A stretch of DNA of 25,540 nt, from positions 83,914 to 109,453 of the IMG/VR virus record IMGVR_UViG_3300029775_000166; one strand, 5' to 3'. Position 1 is the stretch's first letter, and each line of letters opens with the position of its first letter. A program made the translations under genes and the position numbers. This DNA is from a virus. The notes under the pieces were generated by a model. That model ran no database searches. It was not told where the DNA came from and saw nothing but the letters and a program-made list of their open reading frames with translations. Shown one piece after another: positions 17,381 to 24,208 of the stretch.

Positions 17381-19426
17381 TTAAAATTTAATTTTTAGTA
17401 ACCTTTCTGTTTGCCCAATTGCTTTTACTATCAATTCATTTCTCTTTGTAGATGAAAAGCCAAGACCACTAAGCTGATCGTCAGTACTATCAACTCTCAT
17501 TTTACTTCCCAAAGCTTCTAATACTTTTCTATTTTTCATTAAATCTTCCTTTAAGAATTCATTATAAAAACCAGAAGGTTGTTCCGGATTAATACAATTT
17601 TTCAGCATAAACATGTAATGTTTATTTCCAATTCCAATTTGATCATCCCAATAATTTGGAGAATACATAACTACTGAAACAGGTACAAATTGATTTGTGG
17701 TAAGTCCCCATATCTCATTAGAAGATACATCATATGGTAGCTTATTAATTAAAGTAAATCCATTCTTTCTACTAAACTTAATAGCTGCTACAGTAACATG
17801 CTCATTATGTCTTACATCCTTATTATAATTGAAGTTATATATCTGACCGTTAAACTCTATTTCTGCTCTGAAACCATCTCTACCACCACGATGGTTATAA
17901 TTATGAACATAGAATAAATAAACGCCTTCTTCCATCTGATTAATATCTTGCCATGTAATATTTTCAACTGCCGGCACATTAGAAATCGGGTGAATAATAT
18001 CTACATCCAACATTCCACCAGTAGGACTTAATCGCATTTTGTTACCAAAATAGATATCATAACCGTTAGGTTCTTTACAATGCGCATCCATATCATTCTG
18101 ATTACGCTCATTGTCATTCCATTGAATTGAAAATCTAAGAACGCCATCTACATTACCACCTGCATTTTTAACATTGTTCTTCATTGAACTATCTGTAATA
18201 TTTCCTGTGTATGTCCAACTAAATGCGTTGTTCCATTTGAACATGGATTTACTATCTTTATTCTTCGGGGCAATTAGTGAAACCATGTTAGCAGCATGTT
18301 TATTTTCTAAAAATACTTCTATTTCTCTAGTTGACGGCAAAATGTTATCAATGAAATCATTAATTGTAATCTCCTCAACTTTTGAAAACTTCTTAGGATT
18401 AATAGCAACTTCATTTAACATTTCATCAAAAATACTTGATCCACTAACTCTCTTAGCAGAATCCTTATTTGCAAATAAAATGTTATTAATCGTAATATCA
18501 TCTAATGTTGCAAATTTTCTTTCGAGAGAATCCAAATAACCTAAATCTGTAATCATTTTTTGCGCATCTTCAAGCATTCGTTTTGTATAAATAGGCTTGG
18601 ATCTCTTGTACCCATCTCCTACTATGAATTCAAATTTGCCAACCGCAGTATTTAAATCCATTCCTTCACTGATATTAATAAGTAATGTTCCCATACTATG
18701 ATTTTTTAGTTTAGCGACTACATCACCGACCTTAATCATTTGTTCCCAGACAAAATTGTCTTTTTCCGCTTCTATATCAATTTTATCGTATTCTCTTTTA
18801 CATTTTAAAAATTTAGTTAATACTGTTTCCCATTCATTACCTCTATATAAAGAATTTTGTGATATAAGTTCTAATACTGTAAGTAAACTATCCTCGGTGA
18901 TCTCTTCTAATGATCGCTTAAATACATTCTTTGTGTCTCTATAATTCCCTTGAATATCACCTATTGACATACCACTTTTATTAACTAATTTATCAGGGAG
19001 TACTAAATAAAAATGATCCCATCTAATAACTTCTCCATCCGATAACTGTTCAAAATTATGATCTGTTCCAATATTTTTAAAATTGCTAACAAAAACATTT
19101 GAAACGACTTTTGATTTTAAATAATTTGATAATATATCAAATACCGGTTGCCATGTAGTGTCATTTGTTTTAATATCCCAAATAGTTTGAACTTTATTGT
19201 CCTTAATTGAAACTACATTTCCAATAGTTTTAATAAAGTGCCTGCAACAACTACAATCAAATTCTCTTCTCTTTCTAAATAATTCATTTGTTCCCTTTGG
19301 AAAACTGTCTAAATACAGTAACCAAAATTCGTCTTTATCTACTTCTACTTGAAATAAATGCGAAACATCTTTCGACATTTCATTAAAATTCTCCTGTAAC
19401 ATTTGATTAAGTTGATTAAATTCCAT
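17381..19426 (-). CDS. Large phage protein with DCSCCRHF motif and a YfaP/DUF2135-like domain
   Basis: LRFSIQWND...DMDAHCKEP...GGMLDVD...AVENITW...GVYLFYVHNY resembles the YfaP-type beta-sandwich; SD AAGGAG. Confidence 0.8.
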   Translation of the reverse strand: MEFNQLNQMLQENFNEMSKDVSHLFQVEVDKDEFWLLYLDSFPKGTNELFRKRREFDCSCCRHFIKTIGNVVSIKDNKVQTIWDIKTNDTTWQPVFDILSNYLKSKVVSNVFVSNFKNIGTDHNFEQLSDGEVIRWDHFYLVLPDKLVNKSGMSIGDIQGNYRDTKNVFKRSLEEITEDSLLTVLELISQNSLYRGNEWETVLTKFLKCKREYDKIDIEAEKDNFVWEQMIKVGDVVAKLKNHSMGTLLINISEGMDLNTAVGKFEFIVGDGYKRSKPIYTKRMLEDAQKMITDLGYLDSLERKFATLDDITINNILFANKDSAKRVSGSSIFDEMLNEVAINPKKFSKVEEITINDFIDNILPSTREIEVFLENKHAANMVSLIAPKNKDSKSMFKWNNAFSWTYTGNITDSSMKNNVKNAGGNVDGVLRFSIQWNDNERNQNDMDAHCKEPNGYDIYFGNKMRLSPTGGMLDVDIIHPISNVPAVENITWQDINQMEEGVYLFYVHNYNHRGGRDGFRAEIEFNGQIYNFNYNKDVRHNEHVTVAAIKFSRKNGFTLINKLPYDVSSNEIWGLTTNQFVPVSVVMYSPNYWDDQIGIGNKHYMFMLKNCINPEQPSGFYNEFLKEDLMKNRKVLEALGSKMRVDSTDDQLSGLGFSSTKRNELIVKAIGQTERLLKIKF

Positions 19427-19555
19427 CTTTTCTCTCCTTCTAATTGTTTGATTTATTTTTATTCTAAATAACTAAGCTATAAATCTATATAAACCATAAC
19501 ACAGTTTTGCTGTCTATACAATCTATTATTATTACATTAGGATGTTAGTTTTGAA

Positions 19556-19577
19556 GGCAACTAAATTTATAGTTGCC
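19556..19577 (-). terminator. Hairpin after the LexA-boxed small gene
   Basis: ggcaacta-N6-tagttgcc immediately after the stop at 19583; weak U-tract. Confidence 0.55.
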
Positions 19578-19582
19578 GTATA

Positions 19583-19945
19583 TTATACAATTAATGCCTT
19601 AATATTAATAGATCCATTATAGAAATTTATTGTTGCTTGATATGTATTATTGTTTTCTAGCCATGAAGCATATATGTTTTTTATGAATGACGTTGTAAAC
19701 ATATTTAATAAATATGTATCATTGCTTATTAAAGTACCTATTATATCACTGCCAAAAATTATATTATCTTCTAACACCATACGCAAATTATAAATTTTAT
19801 ATTTTCTAATTCCATATCTTTGAGAATGCTCTATTATTTGGTATTCTGTTATATCTCTCCATTCATTAAAGGCATTTATTTGATATAATAACTCGTTTAT
19901 TGAAATTTGTTTACCCGTTTGTTCCTCAGCAATATTACTATTCAT
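19583..19945 (-). CDS. Hypothetical protein, probably SOS-inducible
   Basis: Start reassigned to ATG 19945 (SD GGAGGT); preceded by a promoter and a LexA box. Confidence 0.8.
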   Translation of the reverse strand: MNSNIAEEQTGKQISINELLYQINAFNEWRDITEYQIIEHSQRYGIRKYKIYNLRMVLEDNIIFGSDIIGTLISNDTYLLNMFTTSFIKNIYASWLENNNTYQATINFYNGSINIKALIV

Positions 19946-19966
19946 TATAGCTACCTCCATTAATTG

Positions 19967-20019
19967 CAAACATACGTTCTGTTGACTTATATAATAACAT
20001 AATATTCTATAATAATCAA
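19967..20019 (-). promoter_or_regulatory. SigA promoter with downstream LexA (Cheo) box
   Basis: Minus strand TTGATT-N17-TATTAT (20019-19991, TG extended). AGAACGTATGTTTG at 19980-19967 matches the Bacillota GAAC-N4-GTTY box. Confidence 0.75.
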
Positions 20020-20060
20020 GTGCGCTTATTAATTGTTTTTTATTATGTCATTAGGAACAT

Positions 20061-20103
20061 AAACTGTTTAGGTGGTTAAACCACCTAACCATATAAACAG
20101 TTT
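20061..20103 (-). terminator. Nested inverted repeats after the mrpR-like gene
   Basis: ttaggtggtt-a-aaccacctaa (20068-20088) plus outer aaactgttta/taaacagttt. Confidence 0.6.
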
Positions 20104-21112
20104 ATAATATATCTAAAACATCCTTAATATTATATCTTAAATTACTTGCAGATATATTAGAACCAAATTCATTAATATATTTTTGGGTTTTATTATCATA
20201 CACTGAAATTCTACGGTCATTTTCATCTTTTTGTAGCAATGCGGTTTTTAAATCAATACCATCATTTGCAAATTGCTCTTTAATATAATTTATTAAACCA
20301 TTTGTATAAATAACAGACATGGATATAAATCTATTTCCTGTTTGTCTTTTGATATAATACATTCGAGATGAAATTGTCCTAAAAGTTATAGGAGTATTTA
20401 CTCTATTTTCTATTTTTTCACCAGCACCTCCGCTGCACCGTTTTAGTATATATTCTGATGGTATAAATGTATTATTCATTTCGTAATCTATATTTGAATT
20501 TTCTATACCATTCGGATAATATACTTTTTGATCATTTGTCTTTACCATTAACTCATATAACAAATCATCTATTATAACTTCTCTACCTGTAATAAGTTTA
20601 ATTTTTTTGGTTCTTTCATCATAATCAGACATTTTTAAATTAATAAGTTCACAAGCATTTTTACCACATATGCCATTATAAAATCCATAGGCTATAAATT
20701 TGTTACTTACATCATAAATTGAATCCAAATATTTTATCATTGTATGTTTTTTAAAATATCTTTGGTTTAGGCTTTCAGCAGGCATTATATTTTTAATTAT
20801 TTCATTGCTTAATGAAGAATCATAGTAATTCGTAGCATCATTGACATAATGTTTTTCATGTAAGCACCAATTATAATAATTTGCTAAATATGCACATCTA
20901 ACCTTTAATGTATCAGGTGAAGTAGAATTATAACTTTTTAGTAGATCAATAACTTGAGGACGGTTAAAATAACACAAATCCATATCCCATTTTTCTTCAG
21001 CAATTGCGGATGTTTTGAACATAGCAATTATCGATTGTTTTGTTGAATCGTCATATTCACTACTATTTAAGTAGTCTAATTTTTGATTTTCATTATACAT
21101 TTTGTTATTCAT
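20102..21112 (-). CDS. mrpR: MrpR/YopR-like master repressor (tyrosine-recombinase fold with degenerate catalytic motifs)
   Basis: MYNENQKLDYL start, DLCYFNRPQV, FYNGICGKNACELINLK (no catalytic Arg), YELMVKTNDQKVYYPNG, no HxxR box. Translationally coupled to the yopQ-like gene, as in SPbeta. Confidence 0.75.
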   Translation of the reverse strand: MNNKMYNENQKLDYLNSSEYDDSTKQSIIAMFKTSAIAEEKWDMDLCYFNRPQVIDLLKSYNSTSPDTLKVRCAYLANYYNWCLHEKHYVNDATNYYDSSLSNEIIKNIMPAESLNQRYFKKHTMIKYLDSIYDVSNKFIAYGFYNGICGKNACELINLKMSDYDERTKKIKLITGREVIIDDLLYELMVKTNDQKVYYPNGIENSNIDYEMNNTFIPSEYILKRCSGGAGEKIENRVNTPITFRTISSRMYYIKRQTGNRFISMSVIYTNGLINYIKEQFANDGIDLKTALLQKDENDRRISVYDNKTQKYINEFGSNISASNLRYNIKDVLDIL

Positions 21113-22364
21113 TCTCATTCACCTCTTTTAATTCATTCATTACTATTGTAACGTGTCTAGGTTTTGGATTTACCTTAAAGCTAAGATTAGAAGATATTTT
21201 ATCAATATCTAATTTATTCACCATGTTAATAAAATCCAATTTATTCTTTATACTATAATATAAAGTAATAATATATATAAACCATTCCTTTTGATTGAAT
21301 TTTTCATCATATAAATTTTTTTCTTCAATAAGGCTATTAATATTTTCCTCAATTGTTTTAAATAACTTTACACTAGTTGCTCTATCAAGCTTATTTTCTT
21401 TATTAAATGTGAAAACAATTGCTTGCCTAATTATAAATAATTCTTTATCAGATAGTTTACCTTGATGATGAAAATTACTACTAGTGTTTAGTCTATTAAC
21501 TAAATAATTAATTTCATCATTTTTTACCATTGTTTCCTTTTGCTCTAATACTAAATGCGTTTTATGATCTTCTTGCCATATAAAACGGTTTGCTTTTTCT
21601 TCATCAAAAACCGTAATATAAAAACCACAATTAAATTTGAACTCTGGATCCTCATCTTTAAGAGAAGTCATCTCTAAATACCTATGAAAACCATCGCTAA
21701 TATCTATTTCTGATTCACTTGGAATAACTAATTTATCATCTTTGGTTATATATGGAGGATCATAATATTCTGGATTTATATTAAGAGTTAATGTATTACT
21801 AATAAATTTATTTTCTTTCATTAGCTTACGAATCTGTTGCCGTGCTTTAGGATTAAGTGTAACTTTTCTAACTTCATTACCCCTTAATGTTGTTCTTAGA
21901 GTCATCCTTCTCTGTATTTTTTCATTGTATCTAATACGTCTAGAATTCCTCCATTTTATTATCTCATCAACAGAAGCAACTACAATAAATTGATCAGGAT
22001 TCAATTGCAGATATTTATCAAATATAATATCTCCTACAGGTTCTTCATCTATAAATTTTTGATCGAAATATTTTTGCTGATTTTCATTAAAATATACATT
22101 TACATCTAATAGATTTGTATCAAATCCATCTTCTCTATTTTTATTTATCTCATATAATACTCGTGTTAATTTATACATAGTATCAAGAGACATTCCTTCA
22201 ACTGGCAATTTACCATTTATAATATCAACAGTATCTCCAGGCGGTACATTATACATATGCACCATACTCTTTTTTAATTGTTCTTTGTATGTTCTTTTTC
22301 CACGATTCAAGTCTGCAATTGCATCACGTAAAACTTCACGTAACGTATCTTCTTTATTAATCAC
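21105..22364 (-). CDS. yopQ: YopQ-like DGQHR/DndB/ParB-N-fold protein
   Basis: YNEKIQRR, FISNTLTLN, IDISDGFHR and ANRFIWQED; directly upstream of the mrpR-like gene. Confidence 0.75.
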   Translation of the reverse strand: MINKEDTLREVLRDAIADLNRGKRTYKEQLKKSMVHMYNVPPGDTVDIINGKLPVEGMSLDTMYKLTRVLYEINKNREDGFDTNLLDVNVYFNENQQKYFDQKFIDEEPVGDIIFDKYLQLNPDQFIVVASVDEIIKWRNSRRIRYNEKIQRRMTLRTTLRGNEVRKVTLNPKARQQIRKLMKENKFISNTLTLNINPEYYDPPYITKDDKLVIPSESEIDISDGFHRYLEMTSLKDEDPEFKFNCGFYITVFDEEKANRFIWQEDHKTHLVLEQKETMVKNDEINYLVNRLNTSSNFHHQGKLSDKELFIIRQAIVFTFNKENKLDRATSVKLFKTIEENINSLIEEKNLYDEKFNQKEWFIYIITLYYSIKNKLDFINMVNKLDIDKISSNLSFKVNPKPRHVTIVMNELKEVNENE

Positions 22365-22410
22365 GAGACTACCCCCTTATTGACAAACTTTTCAAAATTA
22401 TACTATATAA

Positions 22411-22439
22411 ATAGTAACACTGTTATATTTCTTTGTCAA
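22411..22439 (-). promoter_or_regulatory. SigA promoter for yopQ-mrpR
   Basis: Minus strand TTGACA-N17-TACTAT with extended TG. Confidence 0.7.
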
Positions 22440-22496
22440 TAGGCGTAAACAAAATTTTATTATAACAATAAATATATTAAATATATTAAAATTACA

Positions 22497-22913
22497 TTAA
22501 GTTGTAGCATTACAACATTTTTTATTTTCATTTTTTTGACTATTCTTGTGTCTAACGAAAGTTATTACTTTATTTATATCAATTTCACCCTGTATAAGTT
22601 TTGCTACATCTATTCTTATCATATCATCATTAGATAAACTTCCAATTTTAGTTCTTAATCTATGTTTATCAATTATACCTTCCTGTTCTGCTAGTACCAT
22701 AGATTTAACAGGTAGAAATGGAGGGTTTACTATAACATGTACCGGCATATCAGTACGCTTTATTTCACTTGTTAATGGCATATATTGAATAACTTCAGAA
22801 TGTTTTGTTGCAAATTTATTTGATGTAATTACTACTGGTCTATATCCAGATTGAATCCTGCTATCTTCTATTATCGGGATCTCTGCCCAATAAACATCAC
22901 CTTTTTTACACAT
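22497..22913 (-). CDS. mazF: MazF/PemK-family endoribonuclease, orphan
   Basis: KKGDVYWAE, IQSGYRPVVITSN, PLTS, PVHV, SMVLAEQ and IDKHRL..KIGSLS. Catalytic Arg and Thr positions appear retained. Start at ATG 22913 after SD AGGGTG. Confidence 0.92.
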   Translation of the reverse strand: MCKKGDVYWAEIPIIEDSRIQSGYRPVVITSNKFATKHSEVIQYMPLTSEIKRTDMPVHVIVNPPFLPVKSMVLAEQEGIIDKHRLRTKIGSLSNDDMIRIDVAKLIQGEIDINKVITFVRHKNSQKNENKKCCNATT

Positions 22914-22933
22914 AAAAATCACCCTTTCTAGAT

Positions 22934-22972
22934 TCAGCTTGAATCATTATTTTGTTTTGGATATTTGTACAT
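22934..22972 (-). CDS. Possible 12-aa leader peptide MYKYPKQNNDSS
   Basis: Strong SD AGGAGG 8 nt before ATG 22972; the stop lies inside the hairpin gattca-gct-tgaatc. Confidence 0.4.
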   Translation of the reverse strand: MYKYPKQNNDSS

Positions 22973-23083
22973 TATCAAATCCTCCTAACCAAATATATTC
23001 AATTATCATAATTTTTCATATTAATTATATACATTTGACATCGCCTACCTTCTTTATATTTTATTGTTTCAATCATTAAAATA

Positions 23084-23112
23084 AGTATAGCACTAGAAAA
23101 TAAGAATGTCAA
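23084..23112 (-). promoter_or_regulatory. Near-consensus SigA promoter for mazF
   Basis: Minus strand TTGACA-N17-TATACT with extended TG. Confidence 0.75.
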
Positions 23113-23233
23113 GTATAAACATAAATATTTTATTATTTCATTAGATATATAAATTTCACGCACTTTTTTACAACGGAAGTATTCTTAACACTATTTGATA
23201 AAAGAACGCTTTCATCTACACTATTAATATCTG

Positions 23234-23452
23234 TCAATCCCAATTCTGCATTTCACCGCAGTGATGACAGAATATTTCATTTTTACCTAAATCCAATCTA
23301 CCACCACATCGATAACAATAGTATTCATTTTCGTTATATTTTATCGGTTTCTGGTTTAATAAAACATCTTCAATTATCAAACTATCATGTTTGTCACTAA
23401 GTTTAACATTATATTTTTTACATAAATAATAAAATAAATCCCTATCGAACAA
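23234..23452 (-). CDS. Small protein with C-terminal Zn ribbon
   Basis: CYRCG...FCHHCG; TTG start with SD AAGGTG. Confidence 0.75.
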   Translation of the reverse strand: MFDRDLFYYLCKKYNVKLSDKHDSLIIEDVLLNQKPIKYNENEYYCYRCGGRLDLGKNEIFCHHCGEMQNWD

Positions 23453-23566: not shown

Positions 23567-23797
23567 TTAAATACTTTCCAAATACTCATTGATTGCAGTC
23601 TTAATATGAAATATAGCAAACGCCTTAAAATCTATATTATCTTGTTCATTAAACTCAAATGTCGCTTTCAATAATCCATTAGTCCCTGCATCAAGAATTT
23701 TGTCCATCATATCATCTTTTTTATAATATTTATCTACTGTTTTATATATTAATTCTTGATGGCTCATGAATAAATTAACACGTTCATCGGCTGTCAT
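23567..23797 (-). CDS. Protein resembling sigma-70 region 2 alone
   Basis: LIYKTVDKY...DKILDAGTNGLLKATFEFNEQDNIDFKAFAIFHIKTAINEYL parallels the region 2 pattern LV..IA.KY...DLIQEG.IGL.KA...FD.....FSTYA.WWI...I. No region 3 or 4. Confidence 0.65.
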   Translation of the reverse strand: MTADERVNLFMSHQELIYKTVDKYYKKDDMMDKILDAGTNGLLKATFEFNEQDNIDFKAFAIFHIKTAINEYLESI

Positions 23798-24160: not shown

Positions 24161-24208
24161 AGAACATTTGTTCTATGTAATAATACCATATTTTCATTAT
24201 GTTTTCAA
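24161..24208 (-). promoter_or_regulatory. SigA promoter with LexA box at the transcription start
   Basis: AGAACATTTGTTCT (24161-24174); minus strand TTGAAA-N17-TATTAT (24208-24180, TG extended). Confidence 0.8.

Follow-up and report, generated by a model that had tools for sequence, protein, structure and literature searches.

Which role does a phage-encoded MazF endoribonuclease play when its gene stands, without a recognisable antitoxin gene, directly ahead of the genes for the YopQ and MrpR repressor pair? The question is raised by a locus of IMG/VR virus record IMGVR_UViG_3300029775_000166, at positions 19,583 to 23,112 of a stretch of 25,540 nucleotides (nt) that is here called the window (positions 83,914 to 109,453 of the record). 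A reading made from the letters alone, the sequence-only reading, had described the locus as a lysis/lysogeny module that does without arbitrium signalling; the elements that it listed, namely promoters, genes, hairpin and SOS box, were all re-found on the minus strand. The present analysis, which is computational throughout, addresses what this module is and how it may work. The order mazF-yopQ-mrpR proves to be conserved in one phage clade. In the mazF-bearing lineages, the hexamer UACAUA is absent from yopQ and mrpR and is kept in the small SOS-boxed gene that follows them, and in most of these lineages a very short open reading frame (ORF), the micro-ORF, precedes mazF.

The frame for such a locus comes from the Bacillus phages phi3T and SPbeta, in which arbitrium and the genes sroA to sroF (yopM to yopR, or phi3T_92 to phi3T_97) operate together with the host MazEF system (PMC10769878; bioRxiv 10.1101/2023.04.27.537455). 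Work from 2022 to 2026 showed that arbitrium phages of Bacillus settle the choice between lysis and lysogeny by setting host MazF free or inhibiting it. In phi3T, SroA and SroB free the toxin by binding MazE (Brady et al. 2023, as given in text that cites it), while AimX and YosL block it; active host MazF favours lysogeny, and most phi3T messages are degraded except that of the sro operon (PMC10769878; bioRxiv 10.1101/2023.04.27.537455). Sar (phi3T_99, YopT), whose SOS-controlled gene lies one ORF after sroF, binds SroF through contacts to its core-binding (CB) and catalytic-like (CAT) domains and releases it from DNA (bioRxiv 10.1101/2025.11.27.690993). The exact site of the MazF enzymes of B. 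subtilis, Listeria and S. aureus is U^ACAUA, which is proposed to be conserved in Bacillota (bioRxiv 10.64898/2026.08.06.743204).

The adjacency of mazF to the repressor pair, on which the sequence-only reading depended, is conserved. The order mazF-yopQ-mrpR is found in 14 diverged metagenomic lineages. In a survey of mrpR neighbourhoods, seeded with MrpR homologues of 34-48% identity that were traced to long contigs, a PemK-family gene stands directly before yopQ-mrpR in L004, L005, L007, L008, L009, L010/L011, L012, L022, L023 and L024; L006 has a 1.5-kb insert between mazF and yopQ. The only relative without mazF is L021, with a divergent gene of 869 amino acids (aa) in its place. Genes farther upstream and downstream vary from locus to locus. 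When MazF is the starting point instead, its closest homologues with usable contigs stand before yopQ-mrpR in three of three cases; among the best 80 IMG/VR relatives of the protein, yopQ-mrpR is nearby in six, all of them known module loci, and not in the other 74. Its recurrence in many diverged relatives places the arrangement beyond chance. The linkage is specific, old and confined to one clade; phage MazF genes at large do not share it.

Table 1. Features of the mazF-yopQ-mrpR locus and its immediate surroundings, in window coordinates (aa, amino acids; nt, nucleotides).
Feature	Position	Strand	Description
Repeat copy	23130..23145	minus	CCTAATGTAATAATAA with 2 mismatches, 17 nt upstream of the mazF −35 box
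mazF promoter	23084..23112	minus	TTGACA-17-TGcTATACT (extended −10); 5′ leader of about 170 nt
Micro-ORF	22934..22972	minus	12 codons (MYKYPKQNNDSS); AGGAGG ribosome site; stop 20 nt before mazF start
mazF	22497..22913	minus	138-aa MazF/PemK endoribonuclease, Gram-positive EndoA type; Arg25 and Thr48 retained
Internal yopQ-mrpR promoter	22411..22439	minus	TTGACA-17-TACTAT, in the 132-nt mazF-yopQ spacer
YopQ/SroE-like gene	21105..22364	minus	419 aa; no UACAUA in ORF
MrpR/SroF-like master repressor gene	20102..21118	minus	336-338 aa, tyrosine-recombinase fold; overlaps yopQ end; no UACAUA in ORF
Hairpin	20061..20103	minus	Directly 3′ of mrpR stop; -19.9 kcal/mol, z -4.1
Repeat, second CCTAATG copy near module	20040..20055	minus	20 nt upstream of the next promoter's −35 box
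Promoter and SOS-box-like word	19968..20019	minus	TTGATT-17-TATTAT (20019-19991); GAACGTATGTTT at 19979-19968, just after the −10 box
120-aa gene	19583..19945	minus	Candidate SOS-induced antirepressor; two UACAUA sites in ORF
Hairpin after 120-aa gene	19556..19577		Hairpin scan

The MazF protein of the window matches Pfam family PemK_toxin (PF02452; 2.3e-16, profile positions 1-102 of 109) and PHROG 1936, 'MazF-like growth inhibitor' (4e-22). It aligns end to end with the S. aureus and B. subtilis MazF structures in the PDB (2e-13 to 5e-11); among solved structures, it is closest to the very enzymes for which the site U^ACAUA is described, with about 37% identity to the characterised ones. Arg25 and Thr48, reportedly the catalytic residues (B. 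subtilis numbering; Simanshu et al. 2013), do not vary among 15 module-linked homologues. Over these 15 lineages, at 31-70% identity, 16 positions are invariant, including also Pro26, His59 and Glu76. The module-linked copies all have intact frames, each with its own consensus promoter and ribosome site, and a consensus promoter likewise lies upstream of mazF in nearly all related loci. Ten of the 15 proteins (L004, L005, L006, L007, L008, L010, L012, L022, L024 and L023) extend past the canonical fold by some 20 residues, in a C-terminal tail that ends Q-[YFIV]-[SAN]-[YFHM]-A; the tails of the window's own subclade differ from this type. Such a tail might mark the protein for degradation or act in autoinhibition.

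The two following genes are what the sequence-only reading took them for. The YopQ-like protein is homologous to phi3T_96, the YopQ homologue of that phage (phmmer 6.5e-11, tblastn 3e-5), and matches PHROG 5732 (1e-38). Its model (predicted local distance difference test, pLDDT, 82) has an N-terminal helical domain, a central ParB/Srx-fold domain (DGQHR/DndB-like) and a C-terminal helical domain, and the conserved motifs are NPETQR and D-x-x-[ED]-G-[FY]-H. Residues 118-270 of the model give matches with moderate Z scores to PadC (7.6), the N-domain of pNOB8 ParB (6.6), sulfiredoxin (6.5) and KorB (6.2); Foldseek assigns the model a ParB/Noc probability of 0.94-0.96, and Pfam DndB matches the relatives weakly. 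Directly after this gene, on the same strand, lies that of the MrpR-like protein, which matches Pfam MrpR_N_CB (PF22822; 1.2e-18). Both MrpR domains (PF22822 and PF22823) are present in all 25 database homologues, and a profile of 23 homologues aligns over some 300 residues with the solved MrpR/YopR structures 8A0A, 8BJ6, 8BJV and 9RD5 (2e-17 to 2e-19); neither Arg nor His is found among its invariant columns. All lineages have a TTGACA-type promoter at the position of the mazF-yopQ spacer, and the spacer has no terminator-like hairpin. The hairpin after mrpR is likely a terminator or a 3′ stabiliser; it was not called by the terminator scan because it has no U-tract.

The distribution of UACAUA over these genes is markedly uneven. 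An unbiased first pass over coding-strand k-mers, comparing module with flanks in eight lineages, gave TACATA as the most depleted hexamer; the MazF site was learnt afterwards. Across 12 lineages, not one copy is found in the 27,281 nt of yopQ and mrpR, whereas the flanks on the same strand have 187 in 153,652 nt, and TACATA ranks first for depletion among 1997 hexamers (p 5e-14, Bonferroni 1e-10). Its antisense counterpart TATGTA occurs about as often as expected (18 in yopQ and mrpR versus 111 in the flanks), and thus the constraint acts on the RNA. Synonymous-codon shuffles in nine lineages lead to an expectation of 10.4 sites, with fewer than two in 0 of 300 shuffles. Three further lineages likewise have no TACATA in yopQ and mrpR. 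Counted by gene, 26 of 26 yopQ and mrpR ORFs are site-free, compared with 46% of 24 flank ORFs of at least 900 nt, and flank genes carry about 1.2 UACAUA sites per kb. For the contig of the window alone, 0 sites observed versus about 2.5 expected is not significant, so the depletion signal rests on the many lineages. As a positive control, phi3T has 0 sites in yopP, yopQ and yopR and 12-13 in about 9 kb of flanks, in line with the published sparing of the sro message by MazF.

The small gene downstream of mrpR shows the converse. At least one UACAUA is found there in 13 of 13 mazF-bearing lineages, versus 28% of 75 size-matched flank ORFs (p 6.5e-8). These sites fall in differing codon frames and at differing alignment positions, which indicates that the site has been retained while moving. 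The sar gene of phi3T has no UACAUA. The mazF-less L021 has the reverse pattern, with one site in mrpR, the only one in any mrpR, and none in the small gene; this contrast is suggestive. Moreover, 11 of the 15 lineages have one site that lies either in mazF or some 30 nt ahead of the start of yopQ, just past the internal −10 box.

A related observation concerns the early genes at large. In the minus-strand early block of the contig (40.4-83.9 kb), UACAUA occurs 1.78 times per kb in sense and 0.87 in antisense orientation, and the structural block has 0.62 per kb; this sense-strand enrichment resembles that reported for SPbeta and phi3T.

That mazF has no MazE-sized partner is confirmed for its flanks, in which no antitoxin-sized ORF occurs within 312 bp upstream or 132 bp downstream. 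Neither an AbrB-type MazE (PF04014) nor an AimX-like mimic was found in the contig, in related loci or in a complete relative of 130,653 bp; the Pfam scan of the whole contig gives tallies by family, without assigning small antitoxin-like domains to genes. The term 'orphan', however, needs qualifying, since a conserved micro-ORF, missed in the sequence-only reading, stands where mazE stands in mazEF operons. A micro-ORF of 6-12 codons with a strong ribosome site is present in the mazF leader of 14 of 16 lineages, ending 15-25 nt before the mazF start; it was not found in L009 or in Clostridium phage c-st. Its peptide, for example MYKYPKQNNDSS in the window and MNNENNDSS or MMNDSS elsewhere, has the C-terminus [N/D/other]-[D/N]-S-S-stop throughout, with N-T-S once. 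The Ser codons (TCA, TCG, TCT, AGT) and the stop codon (TGA/TAA) vary while the amino acids stay constant, which points to selection on the peptide or its translation. Among phage mazF loci in IMG/VR, the micro-ORF is present in 6 of 6 module loci versus 0 of 73 others. Rfam has no RNA family in 19400-23400, and RNAalifold finds no conserved structure among the mazF leaders, so a riboswitch or attenuator fold in the leader is unsupported. The micro-ORF may possibly work as a leader whose translation ties MazF synthesis to the cell's condition, or encode a small MazF-binding peptide; its position hints at how the toxin may be checked without an antitoxin.

At the other end of the module, the LexA-type box proposed for the 120-aa gene does lie between its promoter and its ribosome site. 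The word is identical to that preceding sar of phi3T, and a GAAC-N4-GTT[C/T] box is kept in this position in 14 lineages, 98-142 nt after the mrpR stop and directly behind a −10 box. The small downstream proteins (94-130 aa) form one weakly conserved family. The predicted complex of MrpR with the 120-aa protein reaches an ipSAE of 0.74, a value attained by 58 of 80 solved complexes and by 2 of 110 mismatched pairs, and the best of three controls gives 0.00. At least 73% of contacts are shared between runs, with a pLDDT of at least 79 for the 120-aa partner, and the predicted contacts involve both the CB and the CAT domain of MrpR. The prediction supports binding of the 120-aa protein to MrpR. 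Modelled by itself (pLDDT 89), this protein consists of a helix plus a beta-barrel, with YojF as best match (Z 7.5). Because the searches made found no likeness to Sar or YopT, it is called a Sar analogue and not a member of the Sar family; it is a candidate positional and functional analogue.

Taken together, these observations can be joined into one explanation, which as a whole we consider probable, though far from secure. The module would control the choice between lysis and lysogeny in a large temperate phage of SPbeta/c-st type that infects a low-GC anaerobe, and mazF would replace the SroA/SroB route by which host MazF is freed in phi3T. With mazF at the head of the operon and no antitoxin, it is simplest to suppose that the RNase comes from the phage; such phages seem to have internalised a host function that Bacillus phages borrow. 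During infection, the strong sigma-A promoter would yield MazF along with SroE and SroF. MazF would then cut phage messages that bear U^ACAUA, those of lytic genes and of the antirepressor among them, and the site-free sroE-sroF message would survive, so that the balance tilts to lysogeny and induction is damped. In most lineages, cutting within mazF or before yopQ would split the read-through transcript, with mazF left dead and yopQ-mrpR left intact; with a site in mazF or the spacer, MazF could remove its own cistron and so limit itself without an antitoxin. Exit from lysogeny would come about when the SOS-induced small protein binds and inactivates MrpR, as Sar does with its repressor in phi3T and SPbeta. 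We infer both the time of MazF expression and its action on lysogeny. Of the three mechanisms that the sequence-only reading had offered, direct RNA cleavage is the best supported; the other two are titration of host MazE and formation of heterodimers with host MazF.

Several observations weigh against this scheme. Thus yopP, yopQ and yopR are free of UACAUA in phi3T (L001), Perkons (L108), phi6255 (L109), E3 (L110) and Thrax4 (L111), none of which has an adjacent mazF and whose flanks carry 1.2-1.4 sites per kb; the hosts of the site-free MrpR-family phages are Psychrobacillus, Mammaliicoccus, Geobacillus and Bacillus. Avoidance of UACAUA in the repressor operon looks like a rule of the whole MrpR family. 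As it also holds without a phage mazF, depletion alone cannot separate phage from host MazF, and host MazF could be its cause. That the phage MazF would cut UACAUA is drawn from family likeness, with the sites in neighbouring genes as indirect evidence, and one MazF subclade has Cys or Ser in place of the Gln beside the invariant Glu76. The pentamer UACAU is not depleted in the module of the window (6 in 2,976 nt, versus 2.2 per kb elsewhere). The window's own mazF and spacer carry no UACAUA, so self-limitation by self-cleavage does not apply to this member, and the contrast offered by L021 is a single case. The score of the MrpR complex is a model confidence and not a measurement, while SroF-Sar complexes are solved, and Sar(phi3T)/YopT (PDB 2DLB) is not among the top fold matches of the 120-aa model in Foldseek and VIA searches. 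The repeat discussed below has a copy in front of the mazF promoter, from which repression of mazF in lysogens might follow. Finally, the scheme does not account for how a cell tolerates MazF without antitoxin or for how lytic growth escapes it. The idea of an arbitrium-independent variant with a phage MazF is partly supported, by the adjacency, the identity of MrpR and the site asymmetry and, weakly, by the failure to detect arbitrium genes; it is weakened by the UACAUA-free signature that occurs without phage mazF as well.

In a different view, MazF is a 'moron', a defence or superinfection-exclusion gene expressed in the lysogen that stands beside the repressor genes only because cargo expressed from prophages gathers there, with the UACAUA pattern shaped by host MazF as in phi3T. 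PHROG 1936 is filed under morons, many Firmicute phages carry orphan MazF-like genes, most of them in other contexts, as the 74 of 80 relatives without yopQ-mrpR illustrate, and MazEF protects B. subtilis against antitoxin-less SPbeta and phi3T mutants; the family-wide freedom of the repressor operon from UACAUA, with or without phage mazF, also speaks for it. Against this view stands the strict reciprocal link to mazF within the clade, kept over deep divergence while every other neighbour varies, and mazF has the same orientation as yopQ-mrpR and probably shares their transcript. The clade-specific micro-ORF travels with mazF, and the small SOS gene keeps its site in each mazF-bearing lineage but not in L021 or in sar of phi3T. 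We regard a purely defensive role as unlikely, with the proviso that defence and switch are compatible and may coexist.

The micro-ORF, in the position of mazE, also speaks for another role, in which mazF is the toxin of an addiction or regulatory toxin-antitoxin pair with an unrecognised antidote and would stabilise a plasmid-like prophage, as c-st is. Besides its peptide, which is confined to these loci, YopQ/SroE, host MazE or a protein encoded elsewhere in the phage come into question as antidote. The relative c-st has the same gene order and the contig encodes a ParA-like ATPase, while the aromatic-Ala-ending tail of 10 of the 15 MazF homologues might serve regulation or degradation. With its 6-12 residues, however, the peptide falls far short of every known MazE in size, and a motif for MazF binding was not recognised in it; neither an AbrB-type MazE (contig and complete relative) nor an AimX-like mimic was found, and the contig encodes a large serine recombinase, as the integrating SPbeta does. 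Addiction would also not explain the pattern of sites in repressor versus antirepressor genes. We think this role improbable. Least credible, to the point of being nearly dismissible, is the notion that mazF is an inactive remnant of a captured host mazEF, adjacent by historical accident. The missing antitoxin gene and the atypical C-terminal tail of the window copy would suit a remnant, but sixteen invariant positions over 15 lineages, intact frames, and promoters and ribosome sites of their own would not.

The explanation that we favour, namely a phage-supplied RNase in the place of SroA/SroB, also has a more far-reaching version. In this, the module is a self-sufficient, antitoxin-free RNase switch in which MazF distinguishes the site-free repressor message from the antirepressor and lytic messages, which bear UACAUA, and is governed by the leader peptide of 6-12 residues (Asn/Asp-Ser-Ser) together with cutting of its own cistron; the peptide could be a translational sensor of the cell state or a mini-regulator that binds MazF. 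This version is tentative, and we would sooner doubt than assert it. If true, it would be a new way in which viruses decide between dormancy and lysis without receptor-based peptide signalling.

Around the module, the 16-nt repeat CCTAATGTAATAATAA(tATAtAA) is strand-specific and has at least 14 intergenic copies in the early-gene block of the contig, always along the direction of transcription. Copies on the minus strand of the window are at 23519-23504, 23145-23130, 20055-20040, 19541-19526, 16405-16390, 13096-13081 and 12127-12112, with more elsewhere in the contig; at times they lie 5-20 nt upstream of a sigma-A −35 box, at times only 30-55 nt before a start codon. Exact CCTAATGTAATAATAA copies were not found in the related loci. 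By analogy with SPBRE, the repeat is a candidate MrpR operator; alternatively, it may be a phage-specific promoter element.

Farther upstream of mazF, a 76-aa protein (23567-23797, minus strand) has a weak match to Sigma70 region 2 (E 5e-4, under the Pfam cut-off); it could act as a small sigma-like or anti-sigma factor. The window has a single exact GAAC-N4-GTTC, the perfect SOS box GAACATTTGTTC at 24162-24173, which lies just upstream of a 104-aa gene (24150-23836, minus strand). The homologue of this gene in L008 (7549-7887), which is directly upstream of mazF, has a box at its start too, and a paralogue is encoded elsewhere in the contig (73201-73500). A few genes upstream of mazF, L012, L022, L026 and L027 encode a homologue of TraG/TrwB-type coupling proteins and a tRNA_anti-like OB-fold protein, both of them uncommon in the early region of a phage.

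The window forms the last 25.5 kb of a viral contig of 109,453 bp, estimated to be 72% complete, and has a GC content of about 29%. Structural genes occupy the plus strand of the contig and a long early-gene block the minus strand; the gene content includes the large serine recombinase, the ParA-like ATPase, DNA polymerase III alpha, ribonucleotide reductase and several TnpB elements. Two genes of 419 and 328 aa at 67-69.5 kb of the contig, considered as a second repressor pair on account of their similar sizes, are unrelated to yopQ and mrpR. As the contig stops 2.6 kb upstream of mazF, the label 'self-contained' given to the module is not demonstrable on it. DNA nearly identical to that of the contig is present in seven public sequencing runs, all of them fermentation or food-production metagenomes; no RNA run is listed among those that contain it. 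A profile search of 185,579 species genomes returned neither an integrated prophage relative nor a host; an IMG/VR locus search with a single protein and a nucleotide-level search of the module against the phage collection gave no matches.

The significance of the locus lies in its relation to the Bacillus work. A clade that includes the neurotoxin-converting phage c-st has an RNase gene at the operon position of phi3T's MazF activators, which supports a link between MazF and lysogeny outside Bacillus. An antirepressor-like gene that, in the mazF-bearing clade, always keeps a site provides a testable rule for how MazF could bias the decision, and mazF-sroE-sroF-sar, at about 3.5 kb, is a minimal system that could be reconstituted.

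Among known systems, the orphan PHROG 1936 genes of Firmicute phages may be compared first: they too are antitoxin-less MazF homologues in phage genomes, yet they stand in other contexts, without the micro-ORF or yopQ-mrpR partners. Chromosomal MazEF (ndoAI-ndoA/EndoA; PDB 4ME7, 4MDX, 4OF1, 4MZM) shares with it the toxin family and subtype, a full-length alignment, and Arg25 and Thr48. Here, by contrast, the toxin is phage-borne, has no MazE gene, and is preceded by its own strong promoter, a long leader and the micro-ORF; many members of the phage module also have the C-terminal tail. Similar in gene order is c-st (CST027-CST030; NC_007581), whose genes were annotated individually in 2005 and, as annotated by its authors, run from a MazF-like gene to a YopQ and a YopR homologue. 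Its yopQ and yopR are likewise free of UACAUA, and nearly every flanking gene has a site. It differs in a 220-aa MazF with a long C-terminal extension and in a 218-aa gene between mazF and yopQ, and neither the micro-ORF nor a canonical SOS box was found there.

The Sar-SroF switch has in common with the present module a small-protein gene just after sroF, a LexA-type box in its promoter and, here as a prediction, contacts to both CB and CAT domains. It differs in that the 120-aa gene is directly adjacent, without an intervening yopS-like gene, in that its product has no detectable sequence or fold likeness to Sar/YopT, and in that its messenger RNA has UACAUA while phi3T sar has none. In the wider sro operon of phi3T and SPbeta, as here, the SroE-SroF pair comes last in a same-strand operon and is UACAUA-free, the phage flanks are rich in MazF sites, and a MazF-type RNase is tied, in the present case apparently, to the lysogeny decision. 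Unlike in phi3T, MazF is phage-encoded and heads the operon where phi3T has SroA/SroB; a conserved micro-ORF precedes it, and the hosts are of Clostridium and not of Bacillus type. No sroC, sroD (yopP-like integrase), AimR, AimP or AimX was detected here; phi3T, Perkons, phi6255 and E3 have a yopP-like integrase gene ahead of yopQ, and none lies between mazF and yopQ here. AimR, AimX and phi3T_92/93 had no matches in the contig, eight related loci or the complete 130,653-bp relative, which has terminal repeats, in single-sequence searches that a divergent AimR could escape; AgrB was not found in the contig or four relatives. The claim that aimR/aimP and yopM-yopP equivalents are missing therefore stands for what was detected in the contig and the complete relative, and is weakened by this limited sensitivity and by the nearby contig end. 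In the literature, no paper was found on a phage MazF linked to SroE/SroF, on the asymmetry of sites between repressor and antirepressor, or on the micro-ORF. What is new here is thus the UACAUA asymmetry and the micro-ORF; the circuit itself is a variant of the known control by sro and MazF.

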